A DNA stretch of 64,000 bases from an uncultured Methanosarcinales archaeon (lineage in GTDB: Archaea > Halobacteriota > Methanosarcinia > Methanotrichales > Methanotrichaceae): the NCBI GenBank assembly GCA_963843555.1, contig CAWJKV010000007.1, forward strand, positions 1 to 64,000, read 5' to 3'. Of this stretch, positions 2,613 through 16,137 are shown piece by piece; position 1 is the first letter of the stretch, and every line of letters begins with the position of its first letter. A model generated the notes under the pieces. The model was not told the origin of the DNA and made no database searches. It was given only the letters and a program-made list of their open reading frames with translations. Both the position numbers and the translations under genes were made by a program.

Positions 2613-4683
2613 ATGAAAAGGGAACGGTAGAAATTTGTTCCTACCACCTGCCCTTACTGCGGCACAGGATGCAGTTTTTATCTGGTGGTCAGGGGCAATA
2701 AGGTCCTGGGAATAGAGCCCTGGCACAGCCCTCCTGTGAATGAGGGCAAGCTCTGCCAGAAGGGAAGGTACGCCCACGAGTTCATCCATAGCATCGACCG
2801 CCTCACCAGACCGCTGATAAGAAAGATGGAGCCTTTGTCGAATCCACCTGGAACGAGGCCTATCGCCTGATCGCAGAGAAGTTCAAATCCTACAAACCGG
2901 AGGAGTTTGGCTGCCTGGCCTCTGCCAAAGCCTCCAATGAAGATAACTACGTCATGCAGAAGTTTGCCCGTGTGGTGTTGAAGACCAACAGCGTTGACAA
3001 CTGTGCCAGGCTATGCCATTCTTCTACAGTCACTGCCCTCTCGGAGGTCTTCGGCTCAGCTGCCATGACCAACTCCATACTGGACCTGGAATAAGGCATA
3101 GTGCATATTTGTCATTGGAAGCAATACTTTTGAACAGCATCCCTTGATCGCAAGGAGGCTCGTCCTTGCCAGGAAGAATGGCGCCAGGATTATCTATGCC
3201 GATCCCAGGCAAACCCCTACCGCAAAGCAGTCAGACCTCTGCCTTTCCATGTATTCCGGTACCGATGTGGCACTGCTCAACGGACTGATGCACCATATCA
3301 TAGAGAACGGCTGGGAGGATGAGGAGTTCATCGCTCGCAGGACAAAGGGCTTTGATTCGCTAAAGAAAACGGTCATGTCGGAAGACTACAACCTCAAGAA
3401 CGTATCAGAGTATCTACGGCGTTCCTGAATCCGACCTGGCAAAGGCAGCGGAATGGATCGCAAAATCCAAACCTTGCGCTCTTATCTACTCCATGGGGAT
3501 CACCCAGCACACCACTGGAGTGGACAATGTCAAATCCGTCGCCAATCTGATGATGCTGACCGGAAACATCGGAAAGCCGGGCAGTGGTGTCAATCCCCTC
3601 CGGGGTCAGAACAACGTCCAGGGTGCCTGCGACATGGGCTGCTTACCGAATGTGTACAGCGGCTATCAGAAAGTGGCAGACGATGCGTCCCGCAGTAAAA
3701 TGATGATTTCATGGGGCGTGGATGAACTCGCCGGGGACGCGGGCTATACCGCCACCGAGATGATCGACCTGCTGGCAGACCAGCCCGGCAAAATAAAGTG
3801 CCTGTACATGATGGGTGAGAACCCCATGCTCTCCGACCCGACCTGAATCATGTTCGAAGAGCATTGGAGAACGTTGAATTCATGGTCTCTCAGGAGATCT
3901 TTCTCTCCGAGACGGCAGAGTTTGCAGATGTTGTCCTTCCTGCGGCCTGCTACGCCGAAAAGGACGGAACCCACACCAACACGGAAAGAAGGGTGCAAAG
4001 ATGGAGGAAGGCCGTCGACCCTCCGGGGGAGGCAAAGCCGGACTGGCTCATCGTCTGCGAGCTCGCAAGAGTCATGGGATACGAGAAACAGTTCCCCTAC
4101 AGTGACGCCAGCGAGATATTCGACGAAGTCGCCAGAGTCACGCCCTCTTATGGCGGAATGAATTACGAAAGGCTGGAGCACCCTTATGCCCTTCAGTGGC
4201 CGTGCCCGGACAGCAAGTCATCCGGGAACGCAGATACTCCACACGGAGAAGTTCTCAACTGCAGACGGCCTGGGCATCTTCACAGCAGTGCACTGGCGGC
4301 CGCCGGCAGAGGTCCCGGATTCCGGGTACCCGTTTATCCTGACCACCGGCAGGAGCATCTGGCACTGGCATACTGGAACCATGACCCGCCGCTCAGAGAC
4401 TCTGGCTAATGAGGTTAAGACCGGCTGGGTGGAAATTCAGACTGACGATGCCCGAAGGCTTGCCATAGCGGACGGCGAGATGGTCCGGGTCTCGTCCCGC
4501 AGAGGTGAGATAGAGATTACGGCGCGGGTGACGGAAGAGATCAAAGAAGGTGAGGTCTTCATACCGTTCCATTTCAAGGAGTGTGCCGCCAATATCCTGA
4601 CCAACAATGCAGTGGACTGCATAGCAAAGATTCCTGAATACAAAGCGTGTGCAGTAAAGATCGAAAAGATGGGGGAGTCATGA
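2613..4683 (+). pseudogene. fdhA: formate dehydrogenase alpha subunit (Cys type), interrupted by in-frame TAG and several frameshifts
   Basis: [63 protein letters not shown]...[10 protein letters not shown] and IPEYKACAV distributed over several frames. Confidence 0.85.
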
Positions 4684-6956: not shown

Positions 6957-7401
6957 GCGATACATCAGCGAGGGAGTAGCCTTGGTGTAAACAGTTGTCA
7001 AGTTTTGCACAAATGGGAGAGGAAGGACTGGAAGAACTCGTCATTGACATTCAGAGATGTTTTTGTCACTTTCGATTGCAATCGAGCAGCACTATCTCTT
7101 TCAGGTCGCCAAACTCGGACAAGGAAGCCATCTTCTAGCTCCTATTAATCACCGGATTTCGGGCATAAGGGCCCAAGGAGGGTATCTCTACTGGTTTTGT
7201 AAGCGTTTCTTCTTAACTTCTTTTCTCATACATTATCATATATGAAATATTCGTCCGAAAAGGCAAACATATATATTCATGCTTAATAGTGGTATATCTG
7301 GCGGAGGCAGGCCGGAAGCAATCGACTCTGAAAGCGCCTGATCCGAGCTTGACGTGACCTTGGCTCATTCCCCTTCAGATTGCTGCGAAACTGGAGGTTG
7401 A

Positions 7402-7626
7402 AGCATAACCGGATTAAGAGAAAAAGGGACGGAGAAGCTGGAAGCAGATTCAGGGATTGTCTTCAATGAACACACCTGTGGCGCGGAAGACGAAAGAGAA
7501 TGCAGCATGATAAGGCATCAAATCCTGGCCGAGATTCACAAGTCCAATGCACCCGCCTGGGTGGCAGAAGAACTGGAGAAGCGGCTGTACTGCCAGGGAT
7601 GCAGGATCGCCGTTGCTAACCGATAA
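7402..7626 (+). CDS. small HTCG/CxxC protein, paralog of 12057-12305 (absent from ORF track; start codon uncertain)
   Basis: Open frame ...EKGTEKLEADSGIVFNEHTCGAEDERECSMIRHQILAEIHKSNAPAWVAEELEKRLYCQGCRIAVANR*, aligning with ORF 12036. Confidence 0.75.
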   Translation, partial: SITGLREKGTEKLEADSGIVFNEHTCGAEDERECSMIRHQILAEIHKSNAPAWVAEELEKRLYCQGCRIAVANR

Positions 7627-7849
7627 GCTGACAGAGGCCCGATGCAGTGATATGCCCATCAGTGGCAGCTCTTGTGAAAATTCTGAAACGGTATTAAGCC
7701 CGGCTATCCAGGGAATCATGGTGCTATTCTTTTATAAGCCAAATGCCCCGCTTCCGCAATCTGCGGCTGCCATATTCTTGGAAATAAGGGCCGAGAATGG
7801 CAGAAGAGGGATCAGGAAAATCGAGAAGTTAGTCCCCTGAGGTGGCCTG

Positions 7850-8317
7850 ATGCAGGATGCTGACCAGAAGAAGCTGGATGAAATATTAAATAAATATGAT
7901 GAATCCGAAGGATTCTTGATTCAATTGTTGCTGGACCTGCAAAACGAGTTCAACTGGATTCCGCGAGATGCCGTCAGAGAGCTCTCCGAAAGGCTGAAAA
8001 TCCCTCCCAGCCGGATATTCAGGATTGCCAGCTTTTATAAAGCGATGAGCCTCGGTCCAGTTGGAAAGCATGAGATAAGCGTTTGCATGGGCACTGCTTG
8101 CCAGGTACGCGGCGCACAGAGAATACTGGACCTGACTGAATCGAAATTGAAGGTAAAACAGGGCGAGACAACGCCGGACATGAACTTCACACTGAAAAGG
8201 GTGAACTGCCTGGGCTGCTGTGCCATAGGGCCGGTAGTGGTAGTAGATGATGATTATTATGGCCGGGTGGCATCCGAGAAAGTGGACAAGATATTGAAGC
8301 AGTACAGTCGGGAGTGA
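7850..8317 (+). CDS. NuoE/HydC-like 2Fe-2S subunit
   Basis: VCMGTACQVRG and VNCLGCCAIGP motifs. Confidence 0.95.
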   Translation: MQDADQKKLDEILNKYDESEGFLIQLLLDLQNEFNWIPRDAVRELSERLKIPPSRIFRIASFYKAMSLGPVGKHEISVCMGTACQVRGAQRILDLTESKLKVKQGETTPDMNFTLKRVNCLGCCAIGPVVVVDDDYYGRVASEKVDKILKQYSRE

Positions 8318-10329
8318 GTGGCAGGATGGCGAGGCTCAAATCAATAAGAGACCTGGAGAGGCTTCGATCTGAAATCGAATTCCAGAGAGATCAATTGAAG
8401 CCTCTGGTTGCAATATGTGCCGGCACGGGCTGCATAACTCTTGGGGCTAGATTGGTCGTCAGCGCCTTTCGTAAAGATGTGCATATGAGAGGTCTGGACA
8501 GAGAGATAGAGATCAAGGAGACCGGATGCCCCGGCTTTTGCGAAAAGGGAACTCTGGTGGTCGTATACCCACAGGGAATCTATTATCTCGGAGTCCAGCC
8601 GGATGATGTGCCAGAAATTGTGGAGGAGACGATCCTCAATGGCAGGCTGGTAGATCGTCTTCTTTACGAGGACCCGGAAACCGGCAAAAAGGCAACGCAG
8701 GAAAGCGATATTCCATTTTATAAGTATCAGATGCGGCATCTCATAAAAGATAATATAAAAATAAATCCCAAAAATATTGAGGACTACATAGCTCTGGGCG
8801 GCTACCGTGCCCTGGCCAGGGCCTTATCAGAAATGACTCCGGAAGAGGTGATCGGAGAGGTAAAAAAGGCCAAACTACGGGGGAGGGGCGGAGGCGGATT
8901 TCCCACGGGACAGAAATGGGAATCGACTCGCCAGGCTCCTGGTCAGCCCAAGTATGTGATTGTCAATTGCGATGAGGGAGATCCCGGCGCTTTTATGGAT
9001 CGTGCGCTCATGGAGGGTAATCCGCACAGCGTTCTGGAGGGCCTGATCATTGCAGCGTACGCTATTGGATCGCATAGCGGTTTCATCTACGTGCGGATGG
9101 AATATCCACTGGCCGTGGAGAACGCAAAGTTCGCCCTGAGCCAGGCTCGAGAATATGGCTTGCTCGGCAAGAACATACTGGGCACAGGCTTTGATTTCGA
9201 TGCGTCCGTGCACCAGGGCGCAGGTGCCTTCGTCTCCGGAGAATCGACGGCCCTGATGAATGCCCTGGAAGGCAAGGTGGGCGAGCCCAGACCGAAATAC
9301 GTCCATACATCCGAGTGTGGTGTCTGGAATCTACCGAGCCTCCTCAACAATGTGGAGACCTTCGCAAATGTGCCTCTCATAATCAACAGGGGTGCTCAGT
9401 GGTTCAATTCCATTGGAACCGAACACAGTAAAGGGACCAAGATCTTCTCACTGGTGGGCAAGGTCAACAATACAGGTCTGGTGGAGGTTCCCATGGGAAT
9501 GACCCTTGCCGATATAATATACAAAATAGGCGGGGGAATACCTGGGAACAAGAGGCTCAAAGGAGTCCAGACCGGAGGCCCATCCGGTGGGATAATTCCT
9601 GCTTGCTATCTGGAAACGCCCGTGGATTTCGATGAACTCACAAGGCTGGGCTCCATGATGGGTTCGGGCAGCATAATTGTCATCGATGAGGACACATGTG
9701 CCGTAGATCTGGCCCGCTATTTTGTGGACTTTCTCTGCGACGAGTCCTGCGGCAAATGCCTGCCCTGCAGAGAGGGCCTGAGGCGGATGCAAGAGACATT
9801 GGAGGGTATCGTCTCCGGCAGAGGTAAAGAAGAGGATCTTGAGACACTCCAGGAGATAGCCGGTTTAATGAGAACGGCCTCGCTCTGTGCTTTAGGGCGA
9901 ACGGCAGTCAATCCGATCTTGAGCACGATTCGCTACTTCGAAGATGAGTACAAGGCCCATATCATAGAGAAAAGGTGCCCCTCGCTCTCCTGCAAGGATC
10001 TGGTTTCATATTTTGTAGAACCGGAGATTTGCATAGGTTGCGATCTGTGCCAGAAGAATTGTCCCCAGGGGGCAATCACGGGAGATAAAGACGGCATCTC
10101 AGTTATAGATCAATCAAAATGCACCCGATGTGGTATCTGCTTTGAGGTCTGTCCAGCAAAGGTGAGAGCTGTCAAGAAGGAATCCCGCGGCCTCTCGCAA
10201 TCCGAACCGAGTCAGCCAGGCCAGACTCAGCCCGAAACGACCCCGTCCGACCGGACTCGAGCTGATGATTCCAGCTCCCAACCGCTTTCGGATAGTGAAC
10301 TCTTCGCAAAAGGAAAGAGGGGTGACTGA
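8314..10329 (+). CDS. NuoF/HydB-like FMN/NAD(P)H subunit with N-terminal 2Fe-2S and C-terminal 2x[4Fe-4S]
   Basis: GRGGGGFP, NCDEGDPGAFMDR, NNVET, ESCGKCLPCREG, SLCALG, HIIEKRCPSLSC and two CxxCxxC ferredoxin motifs. Confidence 0.95.
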   Translation: MSGRMARLKSIRDLERLRSEIEFQRDQLKPLVAICAGTGCITLGARLVVSAFRKDVHMRGLDREIEIKETGCPGFCEKGTLVVVYPQGIYYLGVQPDDVPEIVEETILNGRLVDRLLYEDPETGKKATQESDIPFYKYQMRHLIKDNIKINPKNIEDYIALGGYRALARALSEMTPEEVIGEVKKAKLRGRGGGGFPTGQKWESTRQAPGQPKYVIVNCDEGDPGAFMDRALMEGNPHSVLEGLIIAAYAIGSHSGFIYVRMEYPLAVENAKFALSQAREYGLLGKNILGTGFDFDASVHQGAGAFVSGESTALMNALEGKVGEPRPKYVHTSECGVWNLPSLLNNVETFANVPLIINRGAQWFNSIGTEHSKGTKIFSLVGKVNNTGLVEVPMGMTLADIIYKIGGGIPGNKRLKGVQTGGPSGGIIPACYLETPVDFDELTRLGSMMGSGSIIVIDEDTCAVDLARYFVDFLCDESCGKCLPCREGLRRMQETLEGIVSGRGKEEDLETLQEIAGLMRTASLCALGRTAVNPILSTIRYFEDEYKAHIIEKRCPSLSCKDLVSYFVEPEICIGCDLCQKNCPQGAITGDKDGISVIDQSKCTRCGICFEVCPAKVRAVKKESRGLSQSEPSQPGQTQPETTPSDRTRADDSSSQPLSDSELFAKGKRGD

Positions 10330-10331
10330 GG

Positions 10332-11763
10332 GTGACGAAGCTGAAATTGTTGATCGATGATCATCAGATAGAAGCAGAGGCCACTCAGCAGCATCCTCGA
10401 TGCTGCGAGATCTGCGGGGATCTATATTCCTACCTTATGCCATCATCCCTCTCTTGAACCCTATGGATCTTGCAGGCTTTGCACAGTGGAGATAGAAAAA
10501 AATGGCAGGAAGAGGTTTGTTACCGCCTGCAATTATCCCGTGGAAGAAGGGCTGAGGGTGACGACCTGCTCTCCTGAGGTTCTGGATATTCGCAAGATGA
10601 TAGCAGAGCTGCTCATAGCCAGGTGTCCGGGGGAGAAAAGAGTGCAGGATCTGGCCAGAGAGTATGGAATCACTGAGCTACGATTCAAATCAGATAGTGA
10701 AAAATGCGTCCTCTGCGGACTGTGTAGCCGGGTTTGTGAGGAACTGGTAGGCGTTTCGGCAATTAATTTTCAAAACCGGGGCACAGAAAGGGATGTGGGC
10801 ACGCCGTATGGAGAATTATCTGAGGACTGCATCGGCTGCGGAGCATGTGCACTGGTGTGTCCCACCAATGCCATATCCGAGCGAAGGAACATCTTTCCCG
10901 TCACCCCCCAGGACAATAGAGATATAGAAGATGGATTTCTGAAAGGGGAGCCAGATGATGATCTGGGATTGTTTAGCGAACTATTTGCTGCCGAGACAAA
11001 GATAGAGGGGCAGGATGGTGGAGTTGTCACTGCTCTGCTTGCCAGGGGCATTGAGACGGGCCTGCTCGATTCTGCCGTGGTGGTGCTGAATAGGGAGATT
11101 TATGGAGCGAAAGCTGCTCTGGTTGATGATATCCAGGGAATAACGGGAGCAAAGGGGACGAAGTACATGCGGGTGCCCGTAATGCCTCGGCTGATTGACG
11201 CTCTGAAGGAGGGAAAGAGAAAAATTGCTGTTGTCGGCACGCCCTGCCAGATCCGAGTCATCAGAAAATTGCAGCAGAAGGGATACTTCAATGATGAATT
11301 TGCGGATGCAGAGATTTTCCTCCTCGGGCTCTTCTGTTTTGAGAGTTTCGATTACAGAGATTTGAGGACTCATATTCAAGAGCTATTGGGAATAGACCTT
11401 GAGGAAGCAGACAAGATTCAGATCGCCAAAGGAAAATTCATCGTCTCTCATGAGGACCGGGACTATTCTTGCAGCGTGCGAGAGCTTGAGCATGAAGTTA
11501 GAGAAGGCTGTCGATTTTGCGGCGATTTGGTCTCAAGGCTTGCCGATATATCTATTGGCTCTATAGGAAGCCCCAATGGATGCTCCACTGTGATCGTCAG
11601 ATCCGATCGCGGAAAAAGATTGCTGGAAGGCGTGCAGTTCACCAGGAGAGAGATGAATAGGGATGATATCGTTAAATTGGCCAGATTGAAGAGAAGAAAT
11701 GCCGATAAAAACTTCCAGAAGATCGTGGAGGGTTTGCGGCTCAATTTGATCCCAAAAGGATAA
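10332..11763 (+). CDS. NuoG-like Fe-S module fused to an FrhB/FdhB (F420-binding) domain; frameshift near 10388
   Basis: IPTLCHHPSLEPYGSCRLC upstream of the track ORF; CVLCGLCSRVC, CIGCGACALVCP; GQDGGVVTALL, VGTPCQ, GLFCFESF, GCRFCGD, ADISIGS. Confidence 0.9.
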
Positions 11764-12056
11764 TGGGTTAAGAAGAACCGGATCTCATCTCCTGGGCCAT
11801 TCGCTCTCCACCACGAATTGGTGAACAGTTGTTCCCCGGGACCCTTGGCGGTCCAGGATAGATATTCGAATAAATCTATATCATATGCGATATAGGTCAG
11901 CAAAGGTAAGAGTTATATAGTTTATAATGCTTAATAGTTATGTATTGTGCGTATACAATAAGTAAAGCGGCCAGTGGAACTAATTCAAATCTTGTGTTTC
12001 AGCCGCCGGGATGAACTCATCAACGACTCTGCAAATTGAACAGGGGTTTGGAGAAT

Positions 12057-12305
12057 ATGTGTGAATTCGCAGAAAAAGGAATAAATGATCCTAAAATCGA
12101 CCAGATAATCTTCTTTGAACATACCTGTGGTGCCCAAGACGAACGAGAATGCACTTTGATGAAGCATATCATCATGGCCGAGATACGAAAATCCAATGTG
12201 CCTTCCTGGGTTTCCGAGGAGCTGGAGAAAAAACTGGATTGTCGCGGCTGCCGGAGTGCTCTGGGAAGGCGGCCTGCAGCAGGCTCTTTGGAAGTCCTGT
12301 CATAG
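12057..12305 (+). CDS. small HTCG/CxxC protein
   Basis: EHTCGAQDEREC...SNVPSWVSEELEKKLDCRGC; paralog at 7402-7626 supports coding status. Confidence 0.75.
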   Translation: MCEFAEKGINDPKIDQIIFFEHTCGAQDERECTLMKHIIMAEIRKSNVPSWVSEELEKKLDCRGCRSALGRRPAAGSLEVLS

Positions 12306-12595: not shown

Positions 12596-15295
12596 GTGGC
12601 GAATATCCATATCTTATCCGGCATCGAGGAACTCTGCAGACGCCTAGACAAGCTGCGCCCTCAATGTGCAAGTGATCCAAAAAAAACAGAAGAAGCCCTA
12701 ACAGAAGCCCTTGAAGAACTCCGGGCCATCCAGCAGGAGATACAAGCCTCTGAGCAGCTTGACCTCACCAGAGCCGAGCAGGCCGATGAGGCCCTGCGAC
12801 AAAGCGAGGAGCGATTTAGAGTGCTCACCGATAACCTGAGTTCCGGTGTAGCGCTGATTGATGAGTCGGGCAGGTTTGCAGAGTGTAATCCTGCATTCCT
12901 GAAGATGTTTGGCCTTGCCGATGATCCACCTGCTGATAATCCATCCCGTATTAAGGACATTAACGATCAAGACTGGGCTGATTGGCAGGTGTTTGATGAA
13001 AGTGGCGCGTTACTGGATGTTGATGATCACCCCATCCGGAAAGCGTCCAGGACTCGTAAGCCCGTTCGCAATAAGCTGGTCAATGTCAGACTGCCCGGCA
13101 GCGGTGATCCGGTTGGGATGGTCATCAGCCTCGAGCCCATATTCAAACCCGATGGTAAAATGGACTCGCTGATATGCACTTGCCAGGATATTACGGAGCT
13201 GGAGAGAGCGGAGTTGGCACTCCAGCAATCCGAAGAAAATTACCGGCTGCTTATAAAGAATGCTCCCAGCATAATTTATGAACTTGATTTTCGTGGTAAC
13301 AGGTTCAAGAGCGTCAATGACGAGATGTGCAGGACTCTAGGTTACACCAGAGAAGAGCTTCTGGGTATGAATCCAGGAGATCTCCTGGTGGGCACGAGCA
13401 AGACAGCATTCAGGGAACGGATTAAGAAAACACTCGAAGGCGAACCGATAAGAGATTTCATAGAATATAGAGTAAAAACAAAAGACGGACGTGAACTCAA
13501 TGGAGCTCTACGCACCACGATCATATTTAGGGATGGCCAACCAGAGAGCGCATTGGTAGTGGCACACGACTTCACTGAGCGCAAACAGATGGAGATGAAA
13601 CTGGCCCGAATGGTCCTGGAGAGGACCGAGGCGCTCTCGAAGGCCAAGCTTGAACTGGAAGCCGCAAATGAAGAACTCAAATTGGATCTGCTGAAGCACG
13701 AGAGACTCGAGGCAGTGCTCGTCGAGGCCAAGGAAGCCGCAGAGGCCGCAGCGCGGGCCAAATCCAATTTCGTGGCCAATATGAGCCACGAGATTCGCAC
13801 GCCCATGAATGCTGTCATTGGGATGACCAGCCTGCTCTTGGCTGACGAAGATTTGAATTCCGAACAGAGAGATTTCATAGAGACTATCAGAATGAGCGGG
13901 GATGCGCTCATGGTCATTATCAACGACATACTCGACTTCTCCAGGATGCAAGAGAACAAGATAATTCTGGAAGAACAGCCTTTCGATCTGAGAGACTGCA
14001 TCGAGGAGGCTCTCGACCTTGTGGCCGTCAAGGCGGGTGAGAAGAGCCTGAACCTCGCTTACACCATGGACAAAAGCGTTCCCGAGATTATCATCGGTGA
14101 TCCCAACCGTCTCAGACAGATCCTGAGCAATCTCCTCAGTAACGCTATAAAATTTTCAGAGCGCGGCGAGATCAAGCTCTCGGTATCAAGCCAAGACCAG
14201 GAGGGCGCTGGCGCTCATGAGATCCTTTTCGCAGTTCAGGATACGGGTATAGGCATTTCCGCGGACCAAATGGGTTATCTGTTCCAACCTTTCAGTCAGG
14301 TTGATGCCACCGGGATGCGTAATAACGTCGGAGGAACCGGCCTCGGTCTGGTTATCAGCAAGAAACTCGTGGAGCTGATGGATGGCAGGATCTGGGCAGA
14401 GTCAGAGCTGGAAAAGGGGTCGACCTTTTATTTCACCATCAAAGCAGAGACCGCGCCAGGCGATCCAAATGCGTCTCTTGTCGGAGATCAGCCCCATCTG
14501 GTGGGCAAGCATGTCCTCATAGTTAACAATAACAGGACCAATCGACGTATCCTGGGATCCTATGTCTATTCCTGGGGTATGGTACCACTGGTGGCATCAA
14601 AGACCCAGGCGGCACTGGACTGGATTCGGAGAGGAGATGTCTTTGATGTCGCTATCCTGGATATGGATATGCTGGGTATGGATATGCAAGATAAAAACAG
14701 GCAAGATATGGACGGCCTGACACTGGCGGATGAGATTCACAGGTACAACAATGCTCTTCCTCTGGTGATGCTCACCTCGATTGGACAGCATCTGCCAGCC
14801 GGTTATGCGTACTTAACAAAACCCATAAAGCCCGCACAGCTGCATAAGATTCTCACGAAAGTCATTTCTGTGCCTCTGGCCCGTGATTCAGATCAAGCAA
14901 AAGCGGTCGCCAGGGAAATTCAGACCAATTCTTTGCGGATTCTTCTGGCTGAGGACAATGTAACCAGCCAGAAAGTAACCATACAGATGCTTTTGCGGAT
15001 GGGATTAAGAGCAGATGTAGTCGCCAATGGAATAGAGGCTCTGCAAGCACTAAAACGCCAGCCTTACGACATAGTGCTCATGGACCTCAGGATGCCCGTG
15101 ATGAACGGGCTTGATGCTACTCGAATCATACGCCAGAATTGGCCGGACAATGGACCAAGAGTGATAGCCATTACTGCCTATGCCCAGAAAGGCGATCGAG
15201 ATAGGTGCATAGAAGCCGGCACGGATGATTATATAAGCAAACCCATAAAGCTGGAAGAGCTGGCTGATGTGTTGAGCAAGTATCAGAAGAAATGA
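12596..15295 (+). CDS. hybrid sensor histidine kinase (2x PAS, HisKA, HATPase, 2x receiver)
   Basis: [16 protein letters not shown]-box, [22 protein letters not shown], receiver LLAEDN...LMDLRMP...KP. Confidence 0.96.
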
Positions 15296-15668
15296 GGGCG
15301 GGCTCCTTCGAATTCTAGATAGTGCTGCCATTCCGAGGATCAGCTCCGGCTGCGTTCGCCTCTAGATACGGGTGGGACTGTAAGGGGATATCCGCTTCCA
15401 CCTGCGGCTGATGATCAGGCTGCCTGCAAAGGCCCGGGCTCAGCCTTACCAACTCCAAGAAGCTCTGGACGCTTTAATATCCCAGATGTCTCTGAAGATA
15501 TCACCTGGATTCGCCGGAAGGAGCATATGCCGGTTCGCGGGGGCGCGCTTGGGTGTGGGTGCAGAAGGTAGACGGCTAGAGGAGAGGCGGTGCATGCTTT
15601 CGCAGCTATCTTGGCTCCGGATTTTGAGACTATTGGCATCTCTCAGATGCCATTAGCTCCAATCACCC

Positions 15669-15905
15669 TCATTTATCGTAGAAAAGCTCAAGATATTCTT
15701 CGTTAGTTAAACCTGCCCTGGCTATTAGCTTCTTGAGAAGCCCGATGCCAAGATCCTTGCCTTTATGCACAGGTACTGAGAGATGAACGTCGCTTCCTTC
15801 TTTAATTAATATATGGTGACTGCCTTCGATATGATTGAGCTTCCAGCCTGCTCTTTTGAAGGCAGCTACATGTTTATCGCCACAGACTCTAGGAAGCTTC
15901 TGCAT
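15669..15905 (-). CDS. hicA: HicA-family toxin
   Basis: GSHHIL, SVPVHKGKDLGIGLL. Confidence 0.9.
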   Translation of the reverse strand: MQKLPRVCGDKHVAAFKRAGWKLNHIEGSHHILIKEGSDVHLSVPVHKGKDLGIGLLKKLIARAGLTNEEYLELFYDK

Positions 15906-16137
15906 ATTTTGATTCAGTGACGTCTAGAGAGATATCGATCTTTCCATCGATGGATGGGATCTTGAGCTTATCTCCTGCTATCTTGAGCCTGGATTTTAGG
16001 CATCCGATAATGGCTTCACTTATGTTTTCTATGGCCTCTTCCTTGCTCTCCCCTTCCGAAAGGCATCCAGGCAAATCGGTGCACTCAACAACATACTTTC
16101 CGTCTTCGTCGCGCTCAATGGTAATATGAAATTTCAT
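15889..16137 (-). CDS. hicB: HicB-family antitoxin
   Basis: YVVECTDLPGCLSEGESKEEAIENISEAI; overlaps hicA, hicBA order. Confidence 0.9.
   Translation of the reverse strand: MKFHITIERDEDGKYVVECTDLPGCLSEGESKEEAIENISEAIIGCLKSRLKIAGDKLKIPSIDGKIDISLDVTESKYAEAS

Follow-up and report, generated by a model that had tools for sequence, protein, structure and literature searches.

Co-inheritance and a shared promoter element link a Cys/His microprotein to the predicted bifurcating enzyme F420-Bfu in Methanotrichaceae

The stretch of DNA analysed here (henceforth referred to as 'the window') comprises 64,000 nucleotides (nt) from an uncultured Methanosarcinales archaeon of the family Methanotrichaceae (assembly GCA_963843555.1, contig CAWJKV010000007.1) and carries the bfuC-bfuB-bfuA operon of a predicted bifurcating enzyme, F420-Bfu, with a gene for a small Cys/His protein just behind it (copy B) and a related frame just ahead of it (copy A). 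We find that this microprotein is kept and lost together with the enzyme across the family and that the two have a promoter element in common, and the microprotein is therefore likely to be an overlooked helper of F420-Bfu. The reading that we favour, tentatively and on sequence and analogy, is that it is a trans-acting, likely zinc-thiolate accessory factor of the enzyme. The sequence-only reading of the window had centred on a duplicated promoter-plus-gene cassette and on a link of the microprotein to the oxidoreductase complex or to a nearby kinase; the comparisons below shift the emphasis from duplication and kinase to a probable dedicated partner and operator of the predicted enzyme, the duplication itself being minor, a snapshot of a gene leaving its operon.

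The operon is a predicted F420-Bfu, as judged from its domains. BfuC matches PF01257 (E 1.5e-50), and BfuB carries PF01512, PF10531 (SLBB), PF10589 (NADH 4Fe-4S), Fer4 domains and a weak N-terminal PF01257 match. An H-x5-C-x4-C motif and a Cys before the B1 motif are found in 43 of 43 BfuB sequences, the equivalence to the B2 site having been mapped by motif. BfuA of the related genome G076 contains Fer2_4, Fer4, FrhB_N and FrhB_C, and the same domains are present in the window, split by a frameshift in this assembly: bfuA starts at GTG 10332 and, next to its counterparts in G076 and G080, holds a single additional base (position about 10385), which may be a real break or an assembly error. 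BfuC, BfuB with its B2-site His/Cys motif and BfuA fused to an F420-binding FrhB domain resemble the F420-Bfu (Type 1 BfuABC, Methanosaetaceae) predicted for the family, without an enzyme test, by Schut et al. 2022, whose accessible text describes three subunits and mentions neither a small fourth gene nor an operator (PMC9304861). Methanothrix is a main source of methane from acetate, and its route to reduced F420 is still debated (PMC12072023). F420-Bfu is a predicted answer to this question; in the literature searched, one paper uses the term and no test of the enzyme was found. To the three genes of the predicted enzyme our results add a fourth that is mostly unlinked to them and an operator that they have in common, and they would extend the theme of small proteins tuning methanogen core energy complexes (MtrI/MtrR, see below) to a bifurcating enzyme, in a genus without genetic tools.

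Co-occurrence and co-loss with F420-Bfu

Among 105 genomes of the family, 37 encode both the microprotein and the enzyme, one (80% complete) encodes the microprotein only, 11 encode the enzyme only and 56 encode neither; within the genus of the window the corresponding numbers are 34, 1, 3 and 21. BfuA and BfuB are both missing from seven genomes that branch among those with the gene. In all six of these with an assembled macB-peroxiredoxin locus, the promoter and the microprotein gene are missing from that locus, which is otherwise intact (G068, G088, G079, G037, G060 and G065; three are 98-99% complete), and in the seventh, G047, the locus ends at a contig end. The six loci show three junction types (G068; G088/G079; G037/G060/G065), and G068 retains the last five codons and the stop of the gene at 96% identity, so that the loss is a deletion. 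A search for BfuC in five of the co-loss genomes, run without a positive control, was empty. What is kept is one open copy anywhere in the genome, as would suit action in trans: an open copy is present in 36 of the 37 genomes with gene and enzyme, the exception being G082, which also has frameshifts in bfuA and bfuB. The link to the oxidoreductase complex proposed from the window alone has therefore stood up, through co-occurrence (37 of 38 gene-bearing genomes), a shared operator and co-loss, and is tighter than could be seen at the time; a functional tie of the microprotein to F420-Bfu is, in our judgement, highly probable.

Many genomes without the gene hold BfuB relatives at 56-59% that represent a different kind of Bfu, its A subunit being of the molybdopterin family in both of the loci scanned (2/2), and none of 18 loci of this other type holds the microprotein gene or the palindromic element. 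Loci of this second type within Methanotrichaceae (L162-L175, L178-L181) comprise bfuC-bfuB, a molybdopterin-family A subunit of 730-820 residues and a DHODB-like gene. Since the second type was found in genomes without F420-Bfu, the two types look mutually exclusive.

A palindromic element at two unlinked promoters

As had been claimed from the sequence, the promoter is duplicated, the upstream element being common to both copies. A 19-nt repeat at 7279 and 11927 lies upstream of copies A and B, and the leader between the upstream element and the coding core has diverged between them. The 24-bp element (Table 1) is a palindrome with its dyad at a central TTAA, where symmetry is 0.62 and no other register exceeds 0.35, and a single pair of positions shows covariation (CG in 20, AT in 17 and unpaired in 12 of 49 distinct sites). 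Scanned with a matrix derived from the family, this genome (G000) yields just two sites, at the promoter ahead of the operon (front) and at that of copy B (rear). Across genomes, the element stands 5' of 39 of the 43 microprotein genes with upstream DNA and, where the front gene is absent, 5' of bfuC in 18 of 18 genomes (16 of them at 17 bits or more). When the two unlinked promoters of one genome are compared (14 genomes), they are 71% identical in the element and 25-27% identical in the flanks; shared descent explains the origin of this likeness, not why only the bases of the element were kept. Lying between TATA box and start, the palindrome is a putative repressor site and could serve as bait for the regulator of bfu. 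It resembles the Thermococcales glycolytic motif (TGM) of TrmBL1/Tgr in its position between TATA box and start and in having the half-site TATCAC/GTGATA among its variants, and differs from it in spacing, the TGM being TATCAC-N5-GTGATA (PMC4158304), whereas the 49 distinct sites here have a spacer of 8 and a conserved central TTAA.

A search for a wider regulon in this genome was negative, a symmetrised matrix giving 45/16/7 sites against control means of 54/15/3. The bfu operons of eight genomes of one sister genus, g13, have no operator above 10.1 bits. In genomes that lack the gene, operator-like sites of 19-24 bits were found ahead of acs (genus g14) and at one promoter of g13, and on this account the palindrome may be bound by a different factor of wider distribution. 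Operator-like AT-rich sites 5' of acetyl-CoA synthetase genes were seen at L233-L236, L219, L239 and L240 (23-24 bits in g14, 10-13 in three other genomes); these may reflect a wider regulon or chance.

In the leaders, Rfam gave no match at gathering score. The g13 bfuC leader holds a conserved block of about 60 nt (L097, L099, L101, L102, L104, L105, L107), also without an Rfam match, and in five of those g13 genomes the left half of the operator is partly present some 400 nt further upstream. A separate, strongly conserved non-coding block of about 110 nt, found at L214:2566-2682 and at eight further g13 loci (L213, L215-L218, L231, L241, L242), has its own TATA-like promoter and faces a DUF6125 gene. 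It can form nested hairpins, shows no covariation and no Rfam or tRNA match, and its promoter pattern occurs in 11 g13 genomes; we consider it a candidate small RNA.

The microprotein family and its candidate roles

A word search returned 50 homologues, all unnamed or 'hypothetical', and those with an organism name come from Methanothrix; a profile search of 1.84 billion representatives returned 20 matches at 1e-10, one of them spurious (a 940-residue repeat protein). The family, found only in Methanotrichaceae, is present in 38 of the 105 genomes, and a profile at E 0.01 raises the count to 40, the two additions being weak matches in long frames. Among 401 genomes of the phylum, clear matches were confined to two, both of the genus of the window, with weak matches also in G010, G011 and G313, and 28 of 30 loci were assigned to Methanothrix, Methanosaeta, Methanotrichaceae or Methanosarcinales. 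A weak match in G110 was rejected as a member, lying as it does in a 529-residue radical-SAM/acetyltransferase-like frame, which we take to be Elp3. The family is under purifying selection: the median ratio of non-synonymous to synonymous divergence (dN/dS) is 0.11 and all values are below 1 (561 of 1326 pairs with dS 0.1-1.5, from 52 distinct cores, chosen by a pattern that fixes some residues and thereby lowers dN somewhat); the pair of copies in the window is itself saturated in dS. No Pfam or NCBIfam family reaches its cut-off for the microprotein, and in the literature, with subscription journals mostly outside the searched set, no description of the family or of the operator was found.

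Invariant in a 51-row alignment are C24, D28, H37, E42, S46, N47, P49, W51, E55, K58 and C62, with C65 nearly so. The conservation of H-x-C, C and CxxC described earlier is thus correct for C24, C62 and C65; H22 and C32 vary, being replaced in 6 and 4 of 52 cores, respectively, and the invariant H37 was not on that list. The fourth Cys is lost in deep branches. C24, H37, C62 and C65, the steady residues of metal-binding type, are spaced C-x12-H-x24-C-x2-C, with one CxxC in the core. Copy B has three predicted helices (29-45, 50-59 and 63-69), and two structure models (predicted local distance difference test 68 and 78) each have three helices, with H37 in the first and the CxxC opening the third. 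From the conserved residues and the helix layout, a C-H-C-C metal site is a natural inference, in which C24, H37, C62 and C65 would bind one metal, most likely zinc, with H22 and C32 as putative optional extra ligands. Neither model has a Foldseek match at E 0.001 or a structural match at Z 5 or more in a comparison by VIA, and a search of PDB sequences gave only a PHD finger at E 0.12. The ESM Atlas held no usable match for one member (P0002), and for another (P0087) it gave leads only, namely MULE clusters at 0.87 and, at 0.92-0.94, clusters without a name that share few features. A search for fusions returned one longer match, a homologue with an unannotated tail, and a profile comparison of the microprotein with BfuB was negative. 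The absence of a Pfam, NCBIfam or fold match, together with the low dN/dS, bears out the earlier suggestion of an unrecognised protein-coding Cys/His family.

Two further observations concern the ends of the protein and its gene. In the deep-branching members P0060 and P0064 (L062, L160) the N-terminus is extended by a part that holds a second conserved C-x3-C stretch, and many remote copies (L042, L045, L046, L048, L050-L052 and others) begin about 25 nt after the TATA box and are for that reason likely leaderless.

The microprotein was compared with several known small proteins. The zinc anti-sigma domain zf-HC2 has the motif H-x3-C-x2-C and was rejected as a candidate, the position four before C62 being Lys in 51 of 51 rows with no PF13490 match; CP12, considered on account of the AWVAEEL stretch, was likewise rejected, with a different Cys spacing and no Pfam match. 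CsoR, RcnR, FrmR and CstR are small three-helix Cys/His repressors placed first in the operon that they repress. They gave weak structural matches (Z 4.3-4.6, root-mean-square deviation 3.4-5.6, 45-63 residues aligned, 0-7% identity) that tied with unrelated helical hairpins; none of 37 members matches the CsoR family PF02583, and no match was seen in five genomes scanned, two of them microprotein-bearing. In NDUFS6 the ligand order is presumably Cys-His-Cys-Cys with spacing C-x8-H-x14-C-x2-C, from which the spacing of the microprotein differs, and none of 37 members matches zf-CHCC. NDUFS6 (NUMM) is nevertheless comparable as a small zinc-site protein that completes a complex whose N-module is homologous to BfuABC, its zinc site being needed for complex I assembly (PMC8161149). 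MtrI of Methanosarcina mazei is a zinc-binding protein of 68 residues, encoded by a stand-alone gene, that binds Mtr on oxygen exposure (PMC12774963). The microprotein resembles MtrI (and MtrR, PMC13370731) in being a helical protein of about 70 residues, encoded apart from its target operon in variable context, non-essential and lineage-restricted, with zinc binding only inferred here. MtrI differs in having an N-terminal four-Cys zinc ribbon of 15 residues, whereas the N-terminus of the microprotein is variable and without a ribbon, and in binding Mtr, being reported in three other families only; the two were compared by description, as proteins that may work alike. The C(P)XCG zinc-finger micro-proteins of Haloferax (PMC11241148) are likewise archaeal, under about 80 residues and equipped with conserved Cys; they have two CxxC, whereas the microprotein has one and is predicted to be helical. 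Since the microprotein lacks what defines MtrI, zf-CHCC, zf-HC2, the C(P)XCG proteins and the Pfam model of CsoR, it represents a new family, one that likely works as known small accessory proteins do.

As an accessory factor, the microprotein would fold round one zinc on C24, H37, C62 and C65 and would bind F420-Bfu, either maturing the enzyme or shutting and shielding it when the cell is oxidised. The palindrome, as a repressor site, would turn enzyme and microprotein on together, and the microprotein would act on the enzyme and not on DNA; the core has a net charge of about -2 and an acidic second helix (AEELEKKL), and operator-like sites exist in genomes without the gene, all of which argues against DNA binding. 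In a bolder form, which we regard as unlikely, it would be a zinc-thiolate redox switch of new fold, docked on F420-Bfu, through which electron bifurcation is gated. It would then be the first subunit of any Bfu enzyme dedicated to regulation, co-produced with the enzyme from unlinked loci through a private operator and needed for active F420-Bfu at the bench. Modelling of the core together with BfuB, BfuC and the N-terminal part of BfuA (FrhB domain left out) gave a score of 0.00. At BfuB position 561 (window about 9994), beside the last B2-site Cys, gene-bearing genomes have Lys and all eight g13 genomes have Glu; this Lys is a possible docking residue for the acidic microprotein, as one column only.

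Several points weigh against the accessory reading. The eight g13 genomes, several of them 94-99% complete, have F420-Bfu without the gene and without a good operator, so that the microprotein is not essential to every F420-Bfu, and the joint disappearance of operator and gene there fits a repressor better. In three incomplete genomes of the window's own genus that have the enzyme (G063, G086 and G084) the gene was not found; the expected site ends at a contig end in G063 and no peroxiredoxin match was seen in G086, whereas G084 offers no such explanation. Few enzyme residues separate gene-bearing genomes from g13 (2, 7 and 9 columns), and with one clade only, this signal is not separable from kinship. 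The genomes are related, and the counts therefore overstate independence, the independent events amounting to about three deletions and one clade. Four front copies lack the element (L060, L062, L063 and L064), many of the sites scored by the matrix also served to train it, and a fixed subunit would not be expected to lose its co-transcribed copy time and again.

The main rival is that the microprotein is itself a metal- or redox-sensing repressor, or co-regulator, which acts at the palindrome and controls its own gene together with the bfu operon. The layout is a classic one: a small Cys/His gene comes first in the operon, preceded by a palindrome that lies between TATA box and start, and the genome has just two such sites, at the promoter of the gene itself and at the target promoter, with marked dyad symmetry and a covarying pair; a remote copy suffices, g13 lacks gene and operator alike, and R30, K36, R44 and K58 are conserved basic residues. 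TrmBL1/Tgr, moreover, repress from likewise placed sites (PMC4158304). The acidic core and second helix, the absence by eye of helix-turn-helix spacing, the strong operator-like sites in g14 and g13 genomes without the gene, which suggest a separate binder, and the four front copies without the element all speak the other way, and we consider this explanation possible though less likely than the accessory factor.

Less likely still, though in line with the redox microprotein of the sequence-only reading, is a small soluble redox or metal carrier, with iron or an Fe-S cluster on Cys/His, that would be the electron partner of F420-Bfu or supply it with clusters. In its favour are the one His and three Cys that are invariant, dedicated inheritance alongside an enzyme rich in Fe-S, and a 4Fe-4S protein gene divergent from the operon in many relatives. 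None of 37 members, however, matches a ferredoxin, rubredoxin or Fe-S family, there is a single CxxC in a protein predicted to be all-helical, and the fourth Cys is dispensed with in deep branches, all of which makes a carrier improbable.

The two copies and their surroundings in the window

The features of the locus are listed in Table 1.

Table 1. Promoter parts, microprotein frames and bfu genes in the window
Feature	Coordinates	Strand	Remarks
BRE (B recognition element)/TATA-like part, front promoter	7254..7272	+	role from position and archaeal promoter layout
24-bp palindromic operator-like element, front copy	7273..7296	+	
GGAGG ribosome-binding-like site and ATA replacing the ATG of orthologues	7393..7407	+	
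Microprotein copy A	7405..7626	+	73 codons, core intact, start codon lost
bfuC	7850..8317	+	NuoE-like, thioredoxin-like [2Fe-2S]
bfuB	8314..10329	+	NuoF/HydB-like; FMN domain, N-terminal [2Fe-2S]-like domain, C-terminal 2x[4Fe-4S], B2-site His/Cys motif
bfuA	10332..11763	+	FrhB fusion with Fe-S domains; frameshift near 10385 in this assembly; G076 has it intact (496 aa)
BRE/TATA-like part, rear promoter	11902..11920	+	
24-bp palindromic operator-like element, rear copy	11921..11944	+	
Microprotein copy B	12057..12305	+	82 aa, intact; conserved C24, H37, C62, C65

Both frames translate as the sequence-only reading had given them and are paralogous (59% identity over 68 residues, E 5e-23), and it had correctly described where they lie with respect to the NuoE-like gene, the FrhB fusion and the kinase. 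A direct repeat of 152 nt (7455-7606 and 12104-12255, 72%) spans the coding core, and an assembly-wide search found no third copy in the 2.68-Mb assembly. Copies A and B are an old duplicate of one promoter-plus-gene cassette, and the bracket that they form round the operon is a passing duplicate state, with the gene moving out of the operon. Copy B appears to be the working gene in this genome and copy A a redundant duplicate without an ATG. The frame placed at 7402 does exist with its core intact, yet its ATG is lost here and it runs from 7405, opening after TGA 7399-7401. The ATA at 7405-7407 sits 7 nt 3' of GGAGG, where the orthologues (G080, L140) have their ATG. No ATG, GTG or TTG stands ahead of the core in this frame, and the first ATG, at 7507, would give a product of 39 residues without C24.

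Copy A is likely silenced or weakly translated and is probably on its way out, as suggested by the loss of its start, a deletion in G076 and its frequent absence in relatives. The contrary view, that copy A is still translated from ATA and that the two copies have distinct roles, which would make the bracket functional, draws on the intact core: compared with L140, the closest copy A orthologue (86%), non-synonymous and synonymous differences number 3.5 each, while neutrality since the G076 split would predict about 7 of the non-synonymous kind (P about 0.06-0.14), so that copy A may be weakly translated from ATA, or the ATA may be an assembly error. Genetic code table 11 gives ATA as a rare start, and the two copies are old (dS saturated) and both intact in G080. 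Set against this, the same ATA occurs in G076, whose copy has lost 28 core codons (P0072 has the identical deletion), G073 has lost the front gene and retained its promoter, and 18 of 37 genomes have no front copy, all of which makes a functional copy A doubtful. Conservation of the 7402 frame, which the earlier reading had counted on, is hence only partial: the core is retained, whereas the ATG is lost, the G076 copy is internally deleted and 18 relatives lack the gene at this place. A search of sequencing runs returned no RNA run holding this DNA, and four DNA runs, compared as contigs, came from related populations (at most 26% of words).

Across relatives the gene occupies four locations, namely first in the bfu operon, just behind it, between the macB pair and the peroxiredoxin gene, and behind a PaaK-like ligase. 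Most homologues lie in neighbourhoods other than those of the window, an outcome that the sequence-only reading had named as speaking against its inference; they are co-inherited with F420-Bfu. In the 37 genomes with gene and enzyme, the front copy is the only one in 9, both copies are intact in 5 (two of these inferred from a flanking gene, as contigs end), the front copy is decayed in 3 (G000, the genome of the window, G076 and G087) and absent in 18, and 2 are unknown. Front copies occur in the three other genera and in deep branches, and the front position is therefore likely ancestral; the front copy was lost in at least two lineages after the second copy arose.

A part in general oxidative-stress defence with the peroxiredoxin, or in the action of the kinase, with the Bfu tie reduced to shared promoter ancestry, is very unlikely and already largely refuted: although the commonest remote site is just upstream of the peroxiredoxin gene on the same strand, and a kinase lies downstream in the window, the peroxiredoxin occurs in 82 of 105 genomes irrespective of the microprotein gene, has its own conserved upstream element and stays where the cassette is deleted, the deletions track loss of F420-Bfu, and the kinase adjoins the gene only in this window (0 of 4 other downstream-type loci, of which one ends 1 kb past the gene), so that the kinase link put forward earlier finds no support.

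The region between copy B and the L15e gene (12596-16137) holds the PAS hybrid kinase and a HicA/HicB pair, and it looks like an insertion, as G076 has no kinase there. Broken bfu frames were also seen in G082 and G085. Upstream of the operon, a formate dehydrogenase alpha-like gene (about 2685-4683) is split over several frames, with longer pieces in G076, which suggests indel errors or decay.

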